A stretch of DNA of 36,586 bases from Nitrospinota bacterium (GTDB lineage Bacteria; JAUXIQ01), in the NCBI GenBank assembly GCA_030620925.1, contig JAUXIQ010000001.1, forward strand, positions 1 to 36,586, in the 5' to 3' direction. Position 1 is the stretch's first letter. Each line of letters begins with the position of its first letter. A program made the translations under genes and the position numbers. Below are positions 307 to 32,008 of this stretch, one piece after another. The notes beneath the pieces are model-generated. The model had not been told where the DNA came from. It was given only the letters and a program-made list of their open reading frames with translations, and did no database searches.

Positions 307-1551
307 ATGAAGTACGGAAAACGAAACGGTGTGAACCGCAGGGAGTTCATCAAAACGACGGGACTGGCGGCGGGAGCGCTGGCTCTGGGCGTGCCGCAAG
401 TATTGGCGGCGTCTCGACCCATCAAGATCGGCACCCTCATGCCCTACACCGGCGCGCTGGCGGCATACGGCCCGGCCATACGCAACGGGGCCATCCTGGC
501 CGCCAAACATATCAACCAGGCCGGCGGTCTGCTGGGCAGGGAGGTGGTGCTGGTGCAGCGCGATTCCCAGACTTCACCCCAGGCAGCTACGGACGCAGCG
601 CAGAAGCTGGTGCAGCTTGACAAGGTGCCCGCGTTCATCGGGGCGCTCTCCAGCGGGGTGTCGCTGGCCGCGTCTTCCGTCTCCATACCTAACAAGGTGG
701 TGCAGATTTCCCCCGCTTCAACTTCTCCCCAGCTCACCGCCCTGGAGGACGACGGCTACGTTTTCAGGACCTGCCCTTCGGACGCCCTGCAGGGGGTGGT
801 GGCCGGGAAACTGGCCAAGGACCTGGGTTTCAAGAAGGTGTCCACCATTTACGTCAATAACGCCTACGGCGTGGGTCTATCCCACGAGTTCAGCAAGTCT
901 TTCAAGAAGCACGGAGGCAAAGTGACCGCCGAAGTGCCCTACGAAAAGGGCCAGCCCTCCTACCGCAGCGAGCTCAACAAGGCTCTCAAAGAGAAGCCGG
1001 ATTGCTTAGCCCTCTTCAGCTACCCCGAAAACGGCACCACCATCCTCCGCCAGGCCATCGAAGGGGGCTACAAGGGCAAGTTCCTCCTGGCTGACGGGAT
1101 GAAGGAACCGGGCCTGATCGATAACGTGGGCGCAAAATACCTCAACGGGACCTACGGCACCGCACCCGGCTCGAAAAGCACCAAATCCAACGAAATTTTC
1201 ACCGCAGAGTACAAGAAGGCGTTCGGCGAGCTGCCCCCCAAACCCTTCATCACCAACGCCTACGACGCCATGGCTACCATAGGCCTGGCCATGCAGAAAG
1301 GAGGCAAGGCAACCGGTGCCTCCATAAGAAATAACATCCGCTCCGTCTCCAACCCGCCCGGGGAGAAGATTTACGTGGGCGAGTTCGAGAAGGCTTTCGA
1401 CCTAATCAAGAAGGGCGCTGATATAGATTACGTGGGCGCCGCCGGGGACGTGGACTACGACAAGGATGGGGACGTGGTAACGCCCATCGAAATCTGGAAG
1501 ATTAAGGACGGCAAATTAACCCACGTCCGCGCCGAGGAGGTAAAAGATTAA
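307..1551 (+). CDS. ABC transporter substrate-binding protein (type-I periplasmic-binding fold, Leu/Ile/Val/amide-binding LivK-like family) with twin-arginine signal peptide
   Basis: 414-aa ORF with ATG preceded by GGGGAGGGGTGAGG. The N-terminus NRREFIKTTGLAAGALALGVPQVLAA has a Tat motif plus hydrophobic region. The mature part starts IKIGTLMPYTGALAAYG and shows the usual PBP1 pattern (DSQTSP, YVFRTCPSD, YVNNAYG). Confidence 0.85.
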   Translation: MKYGKRNGVNRREFIKTTGLAAGALALGVPQVLAASRPIKIGTLMPYTGALAAYGPAIRNGAILAAKHINQAGGLLGREVVLVQRDSQTSPQAATDAAQKLVQLDKVPAFIGALSSGVSLAASSVSIPNKVVQISPASTSPQLTALEDDGYVFRTCPSDALQGVVAGKLAKDLGFKKVSTIYVNNAYGVGLSHEFSKSFKKHGGKVTAEVPYEKGQPSYRSELNKALKEKPDCLALFSYPENGTTILRQAIEGGYKGKFLLADGMKEPGLIDNVGAKYLNGTYGTAPGSKSTKSNEIFTAEYKKAFGELPPKPFITNAYDAMATIGLAMQKGGKATGASIRNNIRSVSNPPGEKIYVGEFEKAFDLIKKGADIDYVGAAGDVDYDKDGDVVTPIEIWKIKDGKLTHVRAEEVKD

Positions 1552-1557
1552 GATTTT

Positions 1558-1617
1558 GTTTGAGGAACCCTTTTTGAAAAAAATGTCCCTCAAACTCCCC
1601 CCAAAAACTTTTATGTA
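1558..1617. repeat. Intergenic hairpin element, family R1, copy 2
   Basis: GTTTGAGG (1558-1565) pairs with CCTCAAAC (1588-1595) around a T5/A7 tract; the inner stem is imperfect. The tail CCAAAAACTTTTATGTA (1601-1617) matches the copy-1 tail at 16 of 17 positions. It starts 7 nt after the SBP stop codon. Confidence 0.7.
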
Positions 1618-1631
1618 TTGCGCATGCAGCA

Positions 1632-1665
1632 GGGGCGACCGTCCCGCGGCAGGCGGGATCGCCCC
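1632..1665. repeat. GC-rich nested palindrome, family R2 core unit
   Basis: GGGGCGA (1632-1638) and TCGCCCC (1659-1665) enclose TCCCGC-GGCAG-GCGGGA (1642-1658). The inner unit TCCCGCGG(A/C)AGGCGGGA recurs at 10688-10704. Degenerate forms occur at 10787-10803, 30732-30747 and 30849-30863. Confidence 0.7.
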
Positions 1666-1686
1666 TAAGCGGCAGAGCACTGAAAA

Positions 1687-3282
1687 ATGGCGAAAAAGAA
1701 CGCTGACAAATACGATCCGGTAAGGCTGGAGATTTACAAGAACCTCTTCTCATCGGTGGCCGAGGAGATGGGGGTCACCCTGGGGCGCACCGCGTTCTCC
1801 CCCAACATCAAGGAGCGGCGGGATTATTCCTGCGCCGTCTTCGACGGAACAGGCAGGATGGTGGCCCAGGCGCTGCACATCCCCGTGCACCTGGGGTCCA
1901 TGCCCCTTTCCGTCCAGTACGCCATCGAACACGTAGAGATGCAAGAGGGGGACGTCGTCCTCCTCAACGACCCCTACAACGGTGGCACCCACCTGCCGGA
2001 CATCACCGTCATATCCCCCGTCTTCCCCACCGGCGCCGGGGGACCCATGTTCTTCACCGCCAACCGCGCCCATCACGCCGACGTGGGGGGAATGGTGCCC
2101 GGCTCCATGCCCCTTTCCTCGGACATCTTCCAGGAGGGGATACGCATACCGCCGGTGAAGATATACGAAGGAGGCCGGCTTAACGGCAGCGTCATGGACC
2201 TGCTGCTGTGCAACGTGAGGACGCCGGACGAGCGCCGGGGCGACCTCGAGGCCCAGTTTGCTGCGAATGCCGTCGGCGCCCGGCGGCTGCTCGAGATACT
2301 GGGCAAATACGGGCGGGAAGAAACGGCCTTCTACATGGAGCAGTTGCAATCTTACGCCGAGCGGATGATGCGGGCCGCCATCCGGGAAATTCCTGATGGA
2401 AGCTATACTTTCGAAGACTACATGGACGAAGACGGCATCGAGCACCGGCCGGTCAAGATAAAGGCGACTATCAAAATAAAAGACGGCGAGGCCGTGGTGG
2501 ATTTCAGCGGCTCAGACCATCAGGTGGGGGGTTCTATCAACGCCTGCTATGCCATAACCCTCTTGGTGGTTTTCTACGTCTTCCGCTGTCTGGCCAGGTC
2601 GGACATACCCTCAAACTCAGGGTGCATGGAGCCCATAGAGGTTATCACCCCTGAAAGGAGCATCGTCGACGCCGATTTCCCCTCCGCCGTGGCCGGCGGC
2701 AACGTGGAGACCTCCCAGCGCATCGCCGACGTCCTTTTCGGGGCGCTGGCCAGAGCGCTTCCCGGCCGGATACCCGCAGCCAGCAGCGGGACCATGAACA
2801 ACGTCACCATCGGTGGCTACGACCCCCTGAAAAAGTCCAGCTTCACCTATTACGAGACCATAGGCGGCGGCATGGGCGCCCGCCCGGATAAAGACGGCAT
2901 AGACGCCATCCACACCCACATGACCAATACCCTGAACACGCCCATCGAGGCCATCGAGCACGCCTACCCCTTCAGGGTCACCGACTACTCGATAAGAAAA
3001 GGCTCCGGCGGCAGGGGGAAATTCCGCGGCGGATGCGGCATCCGGAGGGAATACGAGCTGTTTTGCGACGCACAGGTGACCATCCTCTCGGAGAGGAGGG
3101 TGCACAGCCCCTACGGCCTGAAAGGCGGAGAACCGGGCAAGAGGGGCGTGAACCGACTGGTGCGCGGTAAATCGAAGAGGACCCTCAATTCGAAGGTGAA
3201 CCTCCACGCCCGGAGCGGCGACCGCATCCTAATCCTGACCCCCGGCGGCGGGGGCCACGGCAAGGTTAAACACCGAGGCTGA
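1687..3282 (+). CDS. hyuB: Hydantoinase B / oxoprolinase family protein (N-methylhydantoinase B / acetone-carboxylase alpha-like)
   Basis: 531-aa ORF with family-typical strings DPVRLEIYKNLFSSVAEEMG, RRDYSCAVFD, LNDPYNGGTHLPD, HADVGG and a C-terminal TPGGGGHG. No hydantoinase-A-type gene lies adjacent. Confidence 0.9.
   Translation: MAKKNADKYDPVRLEIYKNLFSSVAEEMGVTLGRTAFSPNIKERRDYSCAVFDGTGRMVAQALHIPVHLGSMPLSVQYAIEHVEMQEGDVVLLNDPYNGGTHLPDITVISPVFPTGAGGPMFFTANRAHHADVGGMVPGSMPLSSDIFQEGIRIPPVKIYEGGRLNGSVMDLLLCNVRTPDERRGDLEAQFAANAVGARRLLEILGKYGREETAFYMEQLQSYAERMMRAAIREIPDGSYTFEDYMDEDGIEHRPVKIKATIKIKDGEAVVDFSGSDHQVGGSINACYAITLLVVFYVFRCLARSDIPSNSGCMEPIEVITPERSIVDADFPSAVAGGNVETSQRIADVLFGALARALPGRIPAASSGTMNNVTIGGYDPLKKSSFTYYETIGGGMGARPDKDGIDAIHTHMTNTLNTPIEAIEHAYPFRVTDYSIRKGSGGRGKFRGGCGIRREYELFCDAQVTILSERRVHSPYGLKGGEPGKRGVNRLVRGKSKRTLNSKVNLHARSGDRILILTPGGGGHGKVKHRG
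3063..3263 (+). repeat. Direct repeat copy 1 (last ~67 codons of hyuB), paired with 3988-4188
   Basis: TTGCGACGCACAGGTGACCATCC...GGGGGCCACGGCAA recurs 925 nt downstream in the same orientation. I count about nine mismatches by eye over ~201 nt. Confidence 0.9.
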
Positions 3283-3335
3283 GTTAAGATGTCTCTATTT
3301 TTTCATGCGGTTGCAATAATTGGAAACTATATTTA

Positions 3336-3683
3336 ATGCAAGAAGTCATTGCAGTGGTAAATTCCAAAGAAGGCAAGCCAATAAGAATAACGAAGTCTAT
3401 ATGGCGCGAAAAGATTCTGGCCGAGCATCAAGAGTTCGCTGCTGATAATAGGTATCTTAACGAAGTTCAGAAAACTATAGAAGACCCGGAATTCATTATG
3501 GAAGGCTGGTCGGGAGAAAGGCTGGCTTTACGATGGTGCGAAATCGCTCCCAAAGGGCCAAAACATTTATGTGTCGTTTATAGAGAACTGGAAGATGATG
3601 GATTCGTAATAACTGCATTTTTCATTTCGAGATTTGAAAAACTGACTAGAAGGAGAAACATCTTATGGCAAAAGAACTCCTGA
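3336..3683 (+). CDS. Small DUF4258-like putative toxin (hypothetical protein)
   Basis: 115-aa ORF that overlaps the downstream DUF2283 gene by 19 nt. The C-terminal strand pattern HLCVVYRELEDDGFVITAFF resembles the ...HVVV..D....V.VITVY end of DUF4258 proteins, which typically pair with DUF2283. This assignment is from memory and was not searched. Confidence 0.55.
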   Translation: MQEVIAVVNSKEGKPIRITKSIWREKILAEHQEFAADNRYLNEVQKTIEDPEFIMEGWSGERLALRWCEIAPKGPKHLCVVYRELEDDGFVITAFFISRFEKLTRRRNILWQKNS

Positions 3684-3862
3684 CAAAAGAAATTAAATTC
3701 AACTATGATTCAGAGGGTGACGTATTGTACATTAACTTCGGGAAGCCTGAAGCAGCCGATGATTCGGACGTAACAGATGGAGGTGTAATTATCCGTCTAA
3801 GAGAAGGGAAAATAGTGGGCCTCAGTATTCTCAATGCAAAGGAAAAGCTTTATATTCCTTAA
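3665..3862 (+). CDS. DUF2283 domain protein (putative antitoxin partner)
   Basis: 65-aa ORF with AGGAGAAA SD (3651-3658) upstream. The sequence FNYDSEGDVLYINFGKPEAADDSDVTDGGVIIRLREGKIVGLSILNAKEKL fits the DUF2283 pattern (YD.E.D.LYI......, ...G.IVGIEILNAS..). Confidence 0.75.
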   Translation: MAKELLTKEIKFNYDSEGDVLYINFGKPEAADDSDVTDGGVIIRLREGKIVGLSILNAKEKLYIP

Positions 3863-3987
3863 CTCTGACAACTCTTCAGAATAGTTCTTTCCAATTTCAG
3901 GGAGTATGCCTTCATTTTATCCCTCAATAAAGAACCAGCCCCCTGAGCCATCAGAATACAACTCCTTATTCTTACACCAATCCCTCA

Positions 3988-4198
3988 TTGCGACGCACAG
4001 GTGACCATCCTCTCGGAGAGGAGAGTGCACAGCCCCTACGGCCTGAAAGGCGGAAAACCGGGCAAGAGGTGCGTGAACAGGCTGGTGCGCGGTAAATCGA
4101 AGAGGACCCTCAATTCAAAGGTGAACCTCCGCGCCCGGAGCGGAGACCACATCCTAATCCTGACCCCCGGCGGCGGGGGCCACGGCAAAGCCGACTGA
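3988..4198 (+). pseudogene. Displaced 3' remnant of hyuB (direct repeat copy 2 plus its own stop codon)
   Basis: The ORF-track entry 4001-4198 (GTG start) reads TILSERRVHSPYGLKGGKPGKRCVNRLVRGKSKRTLNSKVNLRARSGDHILILTPGGGGHGKAD*, near-identical to HyuB residues ~464-526. It has no 5' part of the gene and no SD. Confidence 0.7.
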
Positions 4199-25480: not shown

Positions 25481-26914
25481 CTATCGCTCCTCACCTCCCT
25501 CTACAAGGCCGATGGCCAGGAAATACCGCTTGAGGTATTCTCTATAATCGGGGGGCAGCTCATACCTTTCCATCAGGCTTTCCGCCCGGTAGCGGTACTC
25601 CGCTATAACCTCTTCCGGCTCGGCGGTGGGCGGTGTCCGCGTCGGCATCGCCTTCACCAGCACCTTCAGAACCTCGCGCCCCCCCAACCTTCCCTTCACC
25701 GCTTCCTTCTTTTCAGTATCCCCCTCATGGGAGGCCGAGGCCGCGCCCGCCTCCGTACCGCGTTCCTCGCCGGGCTCACTGCCGGTAATGAGCCCTTGCT
25801 CTCCCCACTCATCCGACACCTCATCAAACAGGGAATCGATGCCCAGAAACTGCCCCGATTCCGCCTGAGCACCCGGCTCCCCTTCCCGGCCCGAAGAAGC
25901 CGTCATCCCCCTCCGGGATTTCGATGCTCTTCGATCGTCCCTTGCTCTCTCCCCCTCAATGGAGGACCGAATCGAGCCGGGGGAAATCTTATTACGTTCA
26001 GCGATCAACTCCTCCAGCAGGTTCCTCAGAGAATCCGAATCACCGCTTTTTAGAGCTTCCCTGAGCTCTTCCATCAGACGGGGATTGAAGGACCAGGAAC
26101 TTCTCTCCATTACTCCCTGCATCAGTTTTAACAACTGTTCATCGTCTAAATCCCGATAGTTTCCAAGCTCGCCTTCTTCCGACCAGAGCAGGGTCGATAA
26201 TTTCGCCGCCTCGAAGCGGGCGCTCCCTTCATCTCCGGCGCCCTCACCAGGTGCGCCCTCGCCCCCCCTGCCCGCACCTGTTGTCTCAGACCTCCTTTCA
26301 CCTCCCACCGCTTCAGCCAGGGACGCACTCTCTCCCCTCCCGTTGTTTTCAAGCTCCTCCTTCTGTTCGCCCGGCTTTATCAACTGCTCTTTCAAGTATC
26401 GGTGCCGGGCCGGCAGGGGGATTCGCTCGATTATACCGGTTGAGACGAGGATTATGGCAATAAAAATAAGGGACAACAGTGTGTGGCGCAGCCTCCACTC
26501 CAGACGGGGCCCGGGCTTGAACGAACCGAGATCGGCCCTCTGCGCGTGGGCGGCTGCGTCTCTGACCTGAAGCCCTTTGAACTCGCTTTCCTGTTCTCCG
26601 GCTAAAAGTTCGTAAGCAGTGCAAAGCCTCTCCTGCAGGGCGAACCGTCTGTCCGCCTCCGCCATGAGCCGAGGCGTTTCCGGCCTAACCCCTCCGGCCC
26701 TGAGAAAACCTACAAGCAGAAATGCCAGGAGAAGCAAGGCCAGGAGCCGGAACTCAAAGGACGGCCACACCCCGAAGTTCGCCAGAACGACGTAAACCGC
26801 GGCGGCAACGGCGCCCCAGTAAAAGGTGTTCAGAACCAGACCGGCCTTGATGCGCACGGCGGCCCTCCTGCTCAAGCGACTTGCGATCCCCTCAATCACC
26901 GCTTCAGGATGCAT
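25481..26914 (-). CDS. Membrane protein with a long E/G/R/S/A-rich low-complexity region (MoxR-operon component, family unknown)
   Basis: 477-aa ORF whose ATG overlaps the upstream gene's stop by 11 nt. It has three hydrophobic helices (residues ~28-48, ~57-72, ~145-162) and then ~200 residues of biased sequence. The C-terminus is YELPPDYREYLKRYFLAIGL. Confidence 0.7.
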   Translation of the reverse strand: MHPEAVIEGIASRLSRRAAVRIKAGLVLNTFYWGAVAAAVYVVLANFGVWPSFEFRLLALLLLAFLLVGFLRAGGVRPETPRLMAEADRRFALQERLCTAYELLAGEQESEFKGLQVRDAAAHAQRADLGSFKPGPRLEWRLRHTLLSLIFIAIILVSTGIIERIPLPARHRYLKEQLIKPGEQKEELENNGRGESASLAEAVGGERRSETTGAGRGGEGAPGEGAGDEGSARFEAAKLSTLLWSEEGELGNYRDLDDEQLLKLMQGVMERSSWSFNPRLMEELREALKSGDSDSLRNLLEELIAERNKISPGSIRSSIEGERARDDRRASKSRRGMTASSGREGEPGAQAESGQFLGIDSLFDEVSDEWGEQGLITGSEPGEERGTEAGAASASHEGDTEKKEAVKGRLGGREVLKVLVKAMPTRTPPTAEPEEVIAEYRYRAESLMERYELPPDYREYLKRYFLAIGLVEGGEER

Positions 26915-27668
26915 GGCCGACGGACCTCCTCATACCCAGCAACAGATCGGCGCTGACGATGGCGCAGATTATCAGGCCGTGCAGCAACACGGTGGTGATA
27001 TAGGTCCCCAGGGGATGATAGAAACTCAATCCATCTATCCTCAGGGCCGACAGCGAGCTTATTCTGTGAAGAGCGAAAAAGGGACTCAAGGGAGGATAAA
27101 GGCCCAGGGTCGCGAAAAGCAGAAACATGAACAGGAACCCCAGCACAAGGGACCGCACTATGTCGTGTCCCTCCAGGACACGCTCCAGTTGCAATGCTAT
27201 GAGACGGTAAGTGGTGAAACAGACCGCAATCAGAAGCAAGATAAGGACGATTTGACTAAATCGGAGCATGGTCAGGATGCGCACAGCGGCCAGAAAGGGG
27301 AAAGTCAAAAGTGCAAGGTATAAGGCGTTTAGCAGACAGTCCAGAAGAATCCACCCGGCCCCTGAGGGCGTTTCAATACCGAACTTCATACCGCCATTAA
27401 CGGCCGCGGCCGCTCTATTTGTCGTCGGTCTGGTAAACCCCAGGTAGGCCGCCCCCAGCAGCGACGCGTAGCCCAGGACGAAGTGCTCGTAATAGTAGGG
27501 CAGCTCGAGGGTAAAGGCGTCGTAGCTCTCCAACCAGGTCATTAACATGGCCAGGCTCAGGAATACCAGATATCCGGCGAAAGGATGACCGGGAGACCTT
27601 TCCATGGAAGGCACCCATCGTTGCATTGTCTCGGACCTTTCGTCCCCCTCTACCTTACTATTTTTCAT
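26904..27668 (-). CDS. Polytopic (about six-helix) integral membrane protein (MoxR-operon component)
   Basis: 254-aa ORF with 11-nt overlaps to both neighbours. It has six hydrophobic segments, for example FAGYLVFLSLAMLMTW and LVLGFLFMFLLFATLGLY. Confidence 0.7.
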   Translation of the reverse strand: MKNSKVEGDERSETMQRWVPSMERSPGHPFAGYLVFLSLAMLMTWLESYDAFTLELPYYYEHFVLGYASLLGAAYLGFTRPTTNRAAAAVNGGMKFGIETPSGAGWILLDCLLNALYLALLTFPFLAAVRILTMLRFSQIVLILLLIAVCFTTYRLIALQLERVLEGHDIVRSLVLGFLFMFLLFATLGLYPPLSPFFALHRISSLSALRIDGLSFYHPLGTYITTVLLHGLIICAIVSADLLLGMRRSVGHAS

Positions 27669-29550
27669 GGGAGAGGTTCCTCCACTCAGCCGGAATTTGA
27701 AACCTGGCTCGCACCATGGTCAGGGATACCCGGCGATGCTTCCTAACCGGGTTGAAACCGGAAGAGGGGGCTCCCTTCAGCCAGGCCAGGAAAACCGCCT
27801 CTCCTTCCCCGCTCTTAACACCGTCTCGCAAATAGCGTTCCAGCAAAATTTTCTTCAAAGGGCCGTGGGGGTCGCTCACCGCTTCCCTCATGCTGAAAGG
27901 TATCGAGCCGGCGCTCAATGCCTCCGGCGAGAGGTCCACCCTGAGCCTTCCGGCGGGGCTCAGGTCTTTCAGTATAAACAGCCGACCGCCCAGCATCAAT
28001 CTCCCGCCGCTGAGCGCGTAAGCTGCGTTGTTATCTATTTCAATATAGGCCCTCTCCCTTCTATCAGAAACCCGGATGCTCACCGGCGGCTCGACCAACT
28101 CCAGCATCCCGAAGGAACGTGCATCCCAGGGCCTTATGGGCGCTTCTATGGTCATCCTTCCAGAGGGGCTGGACTCTATCCGGTAGCTCCTCTCTCCGCT
28201 CCTGTAACTTTCCGGCGCAAAAGCCCTAACCACAGGCCCCGCATGGTTGCCCCGGGCAAGCATGGTCCTGCCCACGGAGGAGAATACGAGAACCTCGGTC
28301 GTCTTTTCCGCAGGCGACCCGTCGGGGTAAACGTCCACGGCGACCAATTGGTAGTTAAGATAGCCCTTGGGCAGATAAGGCCGGTAAAAAGAGAGCTCTG
28401 CCCAGAGCACGAAAGCCGCCGTCAAGCCTGAAACGACGAGCCAGAGAAGCCGCTTCCCCCCAAAATAGCGCCGGGCAAGGGGGTAGGCTATAAGGCATGC
28501 CAGCGCAAAGAGGGCGATCTGCCACTGGAGGGGAAAAGTTACCTTCGCTCGCTTGAGAACATCGGTTCCCCCCGCAAATGCGCCAGCAAAGGACATTTCG
28601 GTGGGCGCGGTTCCGGGGATAAGGTCCGCCCAGAGAGCGTCGAATCCGGACCAGCGGGAAAAAACAGGCAGAGAGGGATCGAACGCAAGGAAAAGCACCT
28701 CTCCCCTGCCCAATCGCCGTCGGACGATAAGCGGGGTTTCCCCTTCACGCAACATCACATCTCCTGAAATATCCTCCAGGGTAACCACGGGTAAGGGAGC
28801 GGGCAGAAAAAGTGTTTCCCCGTATCTGGAGCCAAAGCTCGAAAGCTGGTCCAGAGCTTTCATGCCCTTAACCCTTCCCGGAAGCAGCGCCTCATCCGCC
28901 AGGACCCTGTAGCGGGCCTGACCCGGCCCCCCCGTTATGACAAGCCTCCCGCCCAGAGCCGCCCAATCCTTTATGGCCTTTATCTGCTCCCTGGTCAGCA
29001 GCGACAGCTCGGCATCATGGAGGATTATAGCGCGTACACCGTCGTAACCTTCCGGCGCCGAGGGGAGGTGTTCGGGCCGCGGATGCACCACCCGACCCTG
29101 CGCCCCGAGACGGCTAGAAAGAAAATGGAAGGCTAACGTTCTGCTCAGGGCGATTATGAAATCGCCTGTGATTAAATTATCCCTCAAATCGTAACTGCGT
29201 GAAACCACTTTCCCGCGGCTATCGACCAGGGATACCTCCAGGGGGGACGAGACGTCATCTATCAAAACCACGAAATCGAACGTTTCACGTGAACGGGGAG
29301 GAAGGGTAACCGACCGGGAGTAGAGAACCAAGTGATCATCGCCTCTATACGCGTTTCCAGAAGGTACGGCGACCTCCAGAGTGCCCTCCATAGCCTCTTC
29401 CCTGCTCTCCAGTTGAACATGAAGAGGAGTCCAGGAATGGAGCTTATGGAATCCCTGATGACCCACTTGTAAATCGATGCCGGGCTGCGCCGGTGAATCA
29501 TCGGCTACCATGATCAGCAGGAGAACTAGAAGGATTGCACATCTTTTCAA
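27658..29550 (-). CDS. Large secreted/membrane protein with a GldG/DUF4350/ThuA-like segment (MoxR-operon component)
   Basis: 630-aa ORF with a TTG start preceded by AGGTGA and the signal peptide MKRCAILLVLLLIMVADDSPAQP. It has two adjacent hydrophobic helices near residues 345-395. The segment AIILHDAELSLLTREQIKAIKDWAALGGRLVITGG resembles glutamine-amidotransferase-like folds; this is a recollection, not a search result. Confidence 0.7.
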   Translation of the reverse strand: MKRCAILLVLLLIMVADDSPAQPGIDLQVGHQGFHKLHSWTPLHVQLESREEAMEGTLEVAVPSGNAYRGDDHLVLYSRSVTLPPRSRETFDFVVLIDDVSSPLEVSLVDSRGKVVSRSYDLRDNLITGDFIIALSRTLAFHFLSSRLGAQGRVVHPRPEHLPSAPEGYDGVRAIILHDAELSLLTREQIKAIKDWAALGGRLVITGGPGQARYRVLADEALLPGRVKGMKALDQLSSFGSRYGETLFLPAPLPVVTLEDISGDVMLREGETPLIVRRRLGRGEVLFLAFDPSLPVFSRWSGFDALWADLIPGTAPTEMSFAGAFAGGTDVLKRAKVTFPLQWQIALFALACLIAYPLARRYFGGKRLLWLVVSGLTAAFVLWAELSFYRPYLPKGYLNYQLVAVDVYPDGSPAEKTTEVLVFSSVGRTMLARGNHAGPVVRAFAPESYRSGERSYRIESSPSGRMTIEAPIRPWDARSFGMLELVEPPVSIRVSDRRERAYIEIDNNAAYALSGGRLMLGGRLFILKDLSPAGRLRVDLSPEALSAGSIPFSMREAVSDPHGPLKKILLERYLRDGVKSGEGEAVFLAWLKGAPSSGFNPVRKHRRVSLTMVRARFQIPAEWRNLSHEK

Positions 29551-30397: not shown

Positions 30398-30878
30398 CAT
30401 AGCCCGCCATAACCGTCATTCTGAGTCCCGCGTTTTGCGGGACGAATAATCTCGCCTACCCAGGCTGCAAGGCTCTTCTTTCCATAGCCCGCCAAGACCT
30501 CATTCTGGTTGATACTGTGGCCGGAGGAGCTGAATGGGCCTTCTCAATCAATAACGCGAGATTCTTCGCTTCGCTCAGAATGACAGACCATAGCGTCAGT
30601 CCTGCGAAACACGTGGGAAACATCTCGCTTAACCGTGCTTCCAGGTTCTTTTTCCCATAGTCCTCAGGATCAGGAGGATAGTGGCAGGAGCACAGTACCG
30701 CGGCATGCGGTAAGCCCTGCGGTCGGGCCTGTCCCGCGGAGGCGGGGTTCAGAATGACATAATGCGGCGCGGTAAGGACAGGGGGGTTGAAAAAAGGGAA
30801 TAGACGTAGGGGCAAGGCTAGCTTTGCCCAGATTTATCCCGAGAGACATCCCGCGGGGCGGGACATGAATTGTCTCTA
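30398..30878. repeat. Cluster of R2-family GC-rich palindromic units, downstream side of hsp20
   Basis: Units seen are GTCATTCTGAG-TCCCGCGTTTTGCGGGA-CGAATAATCTCGC (30415-30455) and AGCTGAATGGGCC...GCGAGATTCTTCGCTTCGCTCAGAATGACA (30528-30586). Further units are GTCCCGCGGAGGCGGGGTTCAGAATGACATAATGCGGCG (30731-30769), GTAGGGGCAAGGCTAGCTTTGCCC (30806-30829) and GAGACATCCCGCGGGGCGGGACATGAATTGTCTC (30843-30876). Confidence 0.8.
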
Positions 30879-30982: not shown

Positions 30983-31438
30983 CTACTTGCTTTCGATCTC
31001 GATGGCCTTTAGCTTGGCCTTCTCTACTTTGGGCAGGTTAACCTCCAGGACGCCATCCTTCATGCTGGCCTTGATTTCACCACCGTTCACAGTGGAAGGG
31101 AGGCTGAAGGACCTGTAGAACTTCCCGTAGGAGCGCTCCACCCGGTGAAAGTTTTCCTCGTTAATCTCTTTCTCGTGCTTCCTCTCACCGCTGAGCGTAA
31201 GGGTATGATCCCTGACTTCCAGGTGAATATCTTTCTTCTCCATGCCGGGGAGTTCTGCCTTGAGGACTACCTCATTCTCAGTTTCATAGATGTCCACTAC
31301 AGGGGCCCAGTTCCTGACAACAGTGGAATCTTCTAATAGACTGCCCACGCGCCCGAAGAAGCTGTCGGGGAACATCCTGTTGAGCCTCCCGTGCAAGCCT
31401 GCCATCTCTCTGAAAGGTTCCCATTTAATTAGTGACAT
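30983..31438 (-). CDS. hsp20: Hsp20/alpha-crystallin family small heat-shock protein
   Basis: 151-aa ORF with strong SD AAGGAGGTG. Alpha-crystallin domain strings are WAPVVDIYETENEVVLKAELPGMEKKDI, F.R.F.LP and GVLEVNLPK. Confidence 0.95.
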   Translation of the reverse strand: MSLIKWEPFREMAGLHGRLNRMFPDSFFGRVGSLLEDSTVVRNWAPVVDIYETENEVVLKAELPGMEKKDIHLEVRDHTLTLSGERKHEKEINEENFHRVERSYGKFYRSFSLPSTVNGGEIKASMKDGVLEVNLPKVEKAKLKAIEIESK

Positions 31439-31526: not shown

Positions 31527-31651
31527 GTCATGTATGCAAGAATATTTATATTTTTTATCGTGATTGTGTTATAATCCAGCATCGGCCTTTTAAATAGTTG
31601 AATTATAACATATAATCCAGCTTGCATTCTCATGGATACCGTTGCCAGCGA

Positions 31652-32008
31652 AGCTGAATGGACCTTTTCTCATAATTAGACGAGATTCTTCGCCCCGCGA
31701 AACGCGGGACTCAGAATGACATAATGCGGCGTAGGGGCAGGCCCCTGTGCCTGCCCAAATAATATAAATACCAATGACGGGCAATCCCGCCTACCGCGAT
31801 TCTGCCAGCAATAAATTTCCCCTCCTCTGGACCCCGCCACACGCGGGGCGTTCCGGTTGAGGGGATTAAGGGGAGGGGGATTTTGAAAGCGCAATGGTTG
31901 TAGGTGCGTATTGCATACGCCCCAATAAGGCGAGTTACAAACCCGCCCCTACGTAATCCCGCCTGCGGCGGGTTGATCGTCCAGGGCAGGCACGAGACTT
32001 GCCCCTAC
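31652..32008. repeat. Cluster of R2-family GC-rich palindromic units, upstream side of hsp20
   Basis: AGCTGAATGGACC...CGAGATTCTTCGCCCCGCGAAACGCGGGACTCAGAATGACATAATGCGGCG-TAGGGGCAGGCCCCTGTGCCTGCCC spans 31652-31756. Further hairpins follow: CCCCGCCACACGCGGGG (31832-31848), GGTGCGTATTGCATACGCCCC, CCCGCCTGCGGCGGG and GGGCAGGCACGAGACTTGCCCCTAC (ending at 32008). Confidence 0.8.

Follow-up and report, generated by a model that had tools for sequence, protein, structure and literature searches.

The 3' end of hyuB, a gene of the hydantoinase B/oxoprolinase family, is present twice in contig JAUXIQ010000001.1 of the Nitrospinota bacterium assembly GCA_030620925.1, and between the two copies lies 724 nt of DNA of foreign composition carrying two small genes, a putative toxin-antitoxin pair of the PBECR2 and DUF2283 families (Table 1). 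The whole stretch that was analysed, 36,586 nt, is referred to here as the window. With a probability of about 55%, this structure is a relic, old, fixed, and without a recombinase, that was left in the hyuB 3' end by integration through a single crossover (Campbell type), and it is similar to the cis-mobilizable elements (CIMEs) described in other bacteria.

A repeat search identified one 201 nt direct repeat, at 3063–3263 and 3988–4188, with a start-to-start spacing of 925 nt, which is the only long repeat of such quality in the 36.6 kb window. The original prediction, made from the sequence alone, had described this duplication with the same offset and orientation and had counted about nine mismatches (~95% identity) by eye; base-by-base comparison of the copies gives exactly 9 mismatches and 95.5% identity. 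A chance origin of a 201 nt repeat at 95.5% is ruled out. In the numbering of copy 1, the mismatches are at 3099, 3130, 3145, 3154, 3156, 3192, 3206, 3219, and 3224, and they fall in 8 codons, of which 4 differ synonymously (AGG/AGA, CGA/AGG, TCG/TCA, GGC/GGA) and 4 non-synonymously (E/K, G/C, H/R, R/H), the latter being those that had been listed before.

The two copies end in the different tails that had been read from the sequence, VKHRG* and AD* (asterisks denote stop codons), in the open reading frames (ORFs) 1687–3282 and 4001–4198, respectively. The last 6 codons and stop of hyuB (VKHRG*, 3264–3282) come from the inserted DNA, and the gene ends ...GHGKVKHRG*. Copy 2 lies within a 65 aa ORF, the second of the two named, which matches positions 453–518 of the Hydantoinase_B profile (its last 66) and ends ...GHGKAD*. 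This downstream 65 aa 'hydantoinase B' ORF is best taken as a scar and not a gene, which calls for caution in annotation. The abruptly AT-rich DNA of ~0.7 kb that had been noticed between the copies is 724 nt in length and has a GC content of 39.9%, compared with 61.8% in hyuB and 55.5% in the window as a whole, and it has the lowest GC of all 724 nt stretches in the window. The two small genes within it, also seen originally, are co-directional and overlap by 19 nt.

Exact-protein look-ups identified four further contigs with this locus, from other samples and assemblers, and the site is filled in 5/5 strain-level assemblies, counting the window. All four contigs share the inserted sequence and both of its junctions with the window, and the insert joins the first base of copy 2 at the identical nucleotide in L002, L083, and L187. 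A chimera, assembled from two strain variants of this gene end, would be in keeping with the 4.5% difference between the copies, which is a typical between-strain distance, and with a source that is probably a metagenome assembly. Against this, the junction recurs base for base in assemblies from other samples and pipelines, and a single L083 contig holds both copies, the insert between them, and the gene that follows, such that a chimera is effectively refuted.

Table 1. Features of the hyuB locus in the window, and contigs from other assemblies that carry the same locus.
Feature or contig	Position in window or source	Strand	Description
hyuB (hydantoinase B/oxoprolinase family)	1687..3282	+	intact, 531 aa; Pfam PF02538, residues 10-526, E 2.9e-218
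repeat copy 1 (attL-like)	3063..3263	+	part of functional hyuB; codons for ...CDAQVTILSE...GGGGHGK
inserted foreign DNA	3264..3987	+	724 nt, 39.9% GC
putative toxin, PBECR2 family	3336..3683	+	115 aa; Pfam PF18810, 31.8 bits vs cut-off 27.1
putative antitoxin/partner, DUF2283	3665..3862	+	65 aa; Pfam PF10049, E 6.6e-13
right end of insert, adjoining copy 2	3863..3987		non-coding; no ORF or family match
repeat copy 2 (attR-like, 3988-4188) and tail AD* (4189-4198)	3988..4198	+	displaced, decaying hyuB 3' remnant
L001	Logan SRR31656005		hyuB-locus relative of window
L002	ENA ERZ26800495		hyuB-locus relative of window
L083	JGI 3300060479		hyuB-locus relative of window
L187	NCBI GCA_044343285.1		hyuB-locus relative of window

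Between L083 and the window there is 96–97% identity in the gene pair, 96% in the non-coding right end of the insert (3863–3987), and ~94% in copy 2 and the downstream flank. Since the junction is shared by strains that have diverged to this extent, the insertion predates their divergence. It is old and fixed, and current mobility is unsupported. The island-style insertion originally proposed is therefore retained in its attL/attR-type geometry, with an intact copy 1, a decaying native copy 2, a foreign insert, and parallels in e14 and at guaA, but not as a presently mobile unit, there being no empty site, no other copy, and five filled sites out of five. These same results are in line with the age implied by an old local duplication, the alternative that had been set against mobility, but duplication alone does not account for the foreign insert between the copies.

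The closest other genome is a Nitrospinota metagenome-assembled genome, L003, at 83% aa identity and with the same periplasmic binding-protein gene upstream. It does not have the insert, and its HyuB ends ...GFGKAKD*, which the GKAD* of copy 2 resembles and the VKHRG* of copy 1 does not. Indeed, the new tail of hyuB varies among strains, being GKVKHRG* in the window and GKGKH* in L083. Copy 2 of the window has 5 private substitutions, 4 of them non-synonymous, and at these 4 sites L003, L002, and L083 keep the residue of copy 1, apart from one position at which L003 has a third residue; copy 1 has retained E, G, and R where the residue is conserved in L003. In L187, copy 2 has 3 private non-synonymous changes, different from those in the window, while the differences between copy 2 and copy 1 in L002 are all synonymous. 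Given its tail of ancestral type and the private non-synonymous changes that it has collected in two strains, copy 2 is the displaced native end, decaying under relaxed selection, and copy 1 is the working end of the gene.

It is very improbable that copy 2 is instead what remains of a second hyuB, tandem or horizontally acquired, that was deleted down to its last 201 nt with the gene pair as intergenic cargo. Copy 2 is in frame and still recognisable as Hydantoinase_B, and the exclusively synonymous differences in L002 would suit a second gene, but conversion by the functional copy accounts for that pattern. It is copy 2, not copy 1, that has the tail of ancestral type and is followed by the native sequence, there is no other hyuB fragment in the insert or the window, and copy 2 has an identical left edge in every strain, where it adjoins foreign low-GC DNA.

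Strain-specific variants are common to both copies within a genome at 4 positions in L083 and 1 in L002. The copies within a genome differ by 1/78 and 4/78, as compared with, for example, 9/78 for orthologous copies between strains. This indicates that the two copies have evolved in concert by gene conversion, rather than having arisen by independent insertions, because the junction is the same everywhere. The 4.5% divergence between the copies does not, as a consequence, date the insertion. An outgroup test of which copy was foreign was set aside, L003 being too distant, with saturated synonymous sites, and the copies having been homogenised by conversion. The other product of recombination between the copies, a single hyuB end from which the insert has been deleted by crossover, is absent from 5/5 assemblies. 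Direct repeats of about 200 nt that are less than 1 kb apart are prone to deletion.

In the integration that we favour, a small foreign DNA would have carried the PBECR2/DUF2283 module and its own ~200 nt of hyuB 3' end. A crossover within the shared hyuB segment would have left copy 1 to complete hyuB, with a short tail derived from the insert, and would have pushed the native end downstream, where it would persist as a promoterless remnant, copy 2, in which the GKAD* of ancestral type is still present. A site-specific integrase, either acting in trans or later lost by deletion, is the most likely recombinase, and the outcome would be the equivalent of a CIME, or of e14 in icd/icdC stripped to 0.7 kb. 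The empty site is predicted to have the junction hyuB ...GAGCTGTT + repeat + AGCCGACTGAATAAC, and the circular form, if it existed, ...CAATCCCTCA + repeat + GGTTAAACACCGAGG. Deletion between the repeats would be counter-selected through the loss of an addictive toxin-antitoxin pair; such a harmful loss would explain why the insert persists despite recombination between repeats, and it is probably through its addiction module that the insert has been retained.

If this interpretation is correct, the locus is a clean natural example of an element that has decayed to two attachment-site repeats and a toxin-antitoxin pair, which fits with addiction modules being the last survivors of decayed mobile elements, and hyuB joins the protein-coding genes with 3' ends that are used for integration.

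The closest parallel is with e14 (and phage 21) in icd, where the end of a metabolic gene likewise forms a direct repeat that brackets foreign DNA. In E. coli K-12, the annotated e14 prophage starts within icd, 165 nt short of the gene's end, and has the icdC pseudogene at its far end; over their final 165 nt, icd and icdC form direct repeats in the same orientation, offset by 15,204 nt, with 12 mismatches (92.7% identity). The icd gene extends into e14, and icdC is a pseudogene of the C-terminal fragment (PMC13626634). In both systems, the upstream copy completes the gene into the insert and the downstream copy is a displaced C-terminal remnant, and the repeats are alike in size and divergence, at 165 nt and 92.7% for icd/icdC and 201 nt and 95.5% for hyuB. 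The systems differ in that e14 is 15.2 kb, carries intE and xisE, and excises on SOS induction, whereas the hyuB insert, at 0.72 kb, is one-twentieth of this size, has two small genes and no recombinase, and has no known excision or empty site. The icd end carried by e14 also keeps the frame to the stop codon, while the last residues of HyuB have been replaced by an unrelated tail.

CIMEs of the Streptococcus ICESt1/ICESt3 family have kept attL and attR, have lost the genes for integration and transfer, arise by element decay, and accumulate in tandem at the 3' end of the target gene (PMC5704250). The hyuB insert is like a CIME in having both repeats, which would correspond to the att sites, and no recombinase, relaxase, or transfer gene. 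It differs in that no related intact element is known at the hyuB site, it is far smaller than the CIMEs that have been described, and its host belongs to an uncultured lineage, the nearest named relatives of which are Nitrospinota and Tectomicrobia. The original suggestion of an unrecognised way for toxin-antitoxin modules to lodge in gene ends need not be invoked, as CIME decay and trans-acting integration are already described (PMC5704250).

Of the two genes in the insert, the first belongs to a family predicted by Pfam to be Barnase-EndoU-ColicinE5/D-RelE-like nucleases. Residues H31, E33, K76, Y82, R83, R107, and W111 are invariant in an alignment of 31 relatives, and a profile search of 1.84 billion representatives returned ~1,100 clusters of stand-alone PBECR2 proteins of roughly 100 aa. 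The AlphaFold model of the protein is confident, with a pLDDT of 91.9. At every relative's locus seen, the PBECR2-like gene is paired with a DUF2283 gene. Synonymous codon changes outnumber non-synonymous changes between the window and L083, at 9:2 in the PBECR2 gene and 4:2 in its partner, and the pair is under purifying selection. That it is a toxin-antitoxin module is a reasonable inference from family, architecture, and selection, and the function is accordingly given here as putative.

DUF2283 has no defined function. In a report on ICEMlSymR7A (PMC4755241), the excision activator FseA is called a DUF2283 homologue and the antiactivator QseM is said to weakly resemble the domain. If this assignment is correct, DUF2283 proteins may be regulators tied to integrative elements rather than classical antitoxins.

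Several results weigh against the integration model. The repeat ends 8 nt short of the native stop codon, which means that the C-terminus of HyuB has been altered and not preserved, and this boundary is less tidy than that of typical element-supplied gene ends. Gene conversion has erased whether copy 1 began as a foreign allele. No integrase, transposase, or relaxase was identified by Pfam scans of the ORFs of the insert and 26 further ORFs of the window, nor was a transfer gene seen in these scans, which extends to the window the absence of an integrase or transposase that the original prediction had stated. The C-terminal 66 residues of HyuB recur in the flanks of 0/164 other hyuB loci (mostly from Poribacteria, also from Acidobacteriota and others), and none of the hyuB 3' ends was found to hold an element with an integrase, from which it follows that, on present evidence, this gene end is not a habitual attachment site. 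Three relatives of the pair (L084, L183, L185) do not have any flanking repeats. As for a toxin-antitoxin function, the PBECR2 model has no significant fold neighbour in the PDB (best E 0.13), and there is no sequence match in the PDB and no match in PADLOC or NCBIfam.

Neither an empty site, an excised form, nor a second copy of the cassette was found in the searches made for them, which also counts against the model and leaves the empty sites and further copies that had been anticipated without an instance. The exact HyuB and the exact downstream hexapeptide protein are not on record elsewhere in the exact-protein look-ups, a protein search with the C-terminal 231 aa of HyuB returned nothing above 83%, and scans of genome and metagenome contigs gave best matches of 83% aa (L003) and 70%, respectively. 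A carbamoyltransferase search gave one 98% match, on a 2.2 kb contig; the next, P0168, is 67–72% identical and looks misassembled. The only unoccupied relative found is thus the distant L003. The nearest toxin outside the hyuB locus, on a 533 bp contig, has 77% protein identity, and the phage and plasmid collections hold no match to the toxin, with one IMG/VR contig at 51% that lacks flanking repeats.

These results bear on the main rival explanation, a one-step illegitimate insertion with a long target duplication. Here, foreign DNA would have been captured at a broken or stalled fork in the hyuB end, with either a template switch returning 201 nt upstream or the filling in of a long-staggered break, and with no circle and no integrase. 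We regard this as possible but rather unlikely. An event unique to the lineage (0/164 other loci), the absence of a recombinase and of terminal repeats, and a repeat that ends inside coding sequence to give an altered C-terminus are all as it would predict. Nor does anything show that copy 1 was ever foreign, the sole clustered difference, CGA/AGG, being reachable in two synonymous steps. However, the structure is exactly that given by a single crossover with a homologous segment, and a target duplication of 201 nt is far beyond those of the known bacterial insertion mechanisms; to our knowledge, none gives target duplications near this length. The same family of gene pairs also recurs at guaA, in ordered arrays where the gene-end repeats on either side are short and precise, which points to site-specific recombination and not to rare accidents.

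Other kinds of element were considered and rejected. An insertion sequence, transposon, or miniature inverted-repeat transposable element is not indicated, as there is no transposase, there are no terminal inverted repeats at the ends of 3264–3987, as had been noted from the sequence, and the duplication is 201 nt and not short. Attachment at a tRNA or tmRNA gene was discarded, there being neither in the window, in which no Rfam family was found. An integron cassette was likewise excluded, because the insert is bounded by plain direct repeats of coding sequence and there is no IntI and no tyrosine recombinase in the window. The non-coding right end of the insert, 3863–3987, has an open frame of 42 codons on the minus strand, which was tried as the end of a truncated integrase and has no recognisable motif.

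The PBECR2/DUF2283 pair is located directly after guaA in three other lineages, with toxins that are 54–61% identical. The 3' end of guaA is a documented target of tyrosine integrases, and some of the elements at guaA carry toxin-antitoxin genes (PMC5704250). In contigs L172–L181, four copies of the guaA 3' end lie in tandem after guaA (...KPPGTIEWE*; L172:1331–3011, same in L173–L181). These form a 50 nt repeat family at 1426, 1530, 2312, and 2962, of which the outermost pair extends to 135 nt at 87% identity, and they separate a 104 nt spacer, a 237 aa ORF that matches no family, the gene pair, and a 45 aa GMP_synt_C remnant ORF. The last ~35 nt of the gene-attached copy in L172 are recoded, with AGC AAA CCC CCC GGT ACC ATA where the other three copies have TCG AAG CCG CCG GGG ACG ATC, and the displaced outer copy is closer to guaA of the related L182 than is the gene-attached copy (89% versus 84%). 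This is the signature expected when a gene end has been supplied by an element.

In contigs L166–L171, there are three 31–40 nt copies of ...AAGCCACCCAGCACCGTGGAGTGGGAGTAA, the end of guaA including the stop codon, which bound an array of two compact cassettes (L168:69–1204, L166:259–861). A HicB/HicA-like cassette, made up of a UPF0150/HicB-like gene and a 59 aa HicA-like ORF, is followed by the PBECR2/DUF2283 cassette, with coding sequence filling nearly all of the space between the repeats, and the order is the same in six contigs of this type from different samples. The cassettes at guaA ends are compact, at about 520–780 nt, and are bounded by repeats of 31–50 nt. In L182, the pair starts 8 nt after the guaA stop codon and there is no second guaA copy. 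In all four lineages, the cassettes are 10–20 GC points under the host genes. No integrase is present on the guaA-array contigs, which are short.

There are three minor observations on these contigs. By eye, the 104 nt spacer of L172 begins with another short guaA-like fragment (GTGAACCGCGTGGT). In L177, which has an L172-type array, the DUF2283 gene (L177:849–956) is shortened to 35 aa beside an intact toxin gene, which may be due to decay of the pair or to a sequencing error. Elsewhere in L166 (1859–2863) there is a second gene-end duplication, in which ~150 nt from the 5' end of purD and the region upstream of it is repeated at 88–94% identity with an offset of 857 nt, bracketing an excisionase-family HTH gene (TIGR01764, 32.8 bits) and a 91 aa ORF and leaving a 46 aa GARS_N fragment ORF.

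The guaA arrays recall two other systems. Tycheposons, at tRNA genes of Prochlorococcus, have arrays of cargo split by partial target genes, in which degenerate remnants without an integrase persist (10.1101/2020.12.28.424599), and successive integrations at one site with partial target copies are outlined for the ssrA islands of Dehalococcoides (PMC3146451). In outline, the guaA arrays match this theme of cargo blocks separated by partial target 3' ends. As far as those accounts describe them, the tycheposon and ssrA arrays differ in having tRNA or tmRNA targets, blocks of several kb, and recognisable integrases nearby, while the blocks at guaA are single toxin-antitoxin pairs of 0.5–0.8 kb.

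Integron cassettes, among them the toxin-antitoxin cassettes of chromosomal integrons, and the pdif modules of Acinetobacter plasmids are small, often promoterless units of one or two genes, frequently toxin-antitoxin pairs. Such units lie between repeated recombination sites, and the recombinase that moves them is encoded elsewhere. The repeats at hyuB are direct copies of the 3' end of a protein-coding gene, unlike attC hairpins or XerC/D sites. If the toxin-antitoxin pairs at guaA, with their 30–50 nt repeats, were inserted singly, they would represent an integron-like cassette system that uses ordinary gene ends. The type of structure seen at hyuB is already known, and the cassette arrays at guaA ends are the more intriguing lead and the most useful by-product of this analysis.

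The hyuB insert and one repeat could together be an active 925 nt cassette that excises and re-integrates, mobilised in trans by a recombinase encoded elsewhere or by RecA acting on the 201 nt of homology, within a wider group of toxin-antitoxin mini-cassettes with housekeeping-gene 3' ends as attachment sites. The compact cassettes in arrays at guaA ends, with ORFs filling the space between repeats (L168, L172), are suggestive of this, but there is no presence or absence variation of the cassettes among 5 hyuB-locus assemblies, 6 L166-type contigs, and 10 L172-type contigs, and there is neither an empty site nor a second location, the nearest relative elsewhere being 77% identical in protein. 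Over all 724 nt, the insert of L002 is 100% identical to that of the window, whereas copy 2 has differences at 14/184 positions, which could be taken as a sign of recent transfer of the insert. This was set aside, as the contrast is equally explained by purifying selection on the pair, decay of copy 2 in the window, and conversion from the functional copy. Active mobilisation is thus unlikely. It is similarly improbable that the hyuB insert and the guaA arrays make up one undescribed class of toxin-antitoxin mini-cassettes, 0.5–0.9 kb in size, with a copy of a housekeeping-gene 3' end as the sole determinant of mobility, inserted serially in the manner of integron cassettes, with RecA acting on the longer repeats or with a recombinase that is encoded elsewhere, and then locked in place by their addiction function.

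The hyuB gene has no adjacent hyuA and is preceded by a gene for a Peripla_BP_6 substrate-binding protein with a TAT signal (window 307–3282 for the two genes), an order that is also kept in L003 (69–2182). An intergenic element is duplicated at 90–155 and 1560–1620 of the window, upstream of the binding-protein gene and of hyuB. It has a hairpin-like GGGAAC TTTTTTGAGAAAAAAG GTTCCC followed by CCAAAAACTTTT(G/A)TGTA, with 73% identity between the copies over 41 nt. There is no match to this element in Rfam; it may serve as a terminator or operator, or be REP-like.

The 26 further ORFs of the window that were scanned against Pfam are ordinary chromosomal genes. They include fatty-acid synthesis genes of the plsX, fabD, fabG, and fabF type, RNase III, genes of the 2-hydroxyglutaryl-CoA dehydratase type, a MoxR ATPase, Hsp20, and a molybdopterin oxidoreductase with NrfD. 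Beside the MoxR-type AAA ATPase, at 25481–29550 on the minus strand, are three consecutive large ORFs (477, 254, and 630 aa) that have no Pfam match at E ≤ 1e-4. A 74 nt direct repeat of 74% identity, at 30501–30574 and 31625–31698 (1,124 nt apart), flanks the Hsp20 gene (30983–31438, minus strand) and overlaps a 119 aa ORF at 30456–30815; it may reflect paralogous small ORFs.

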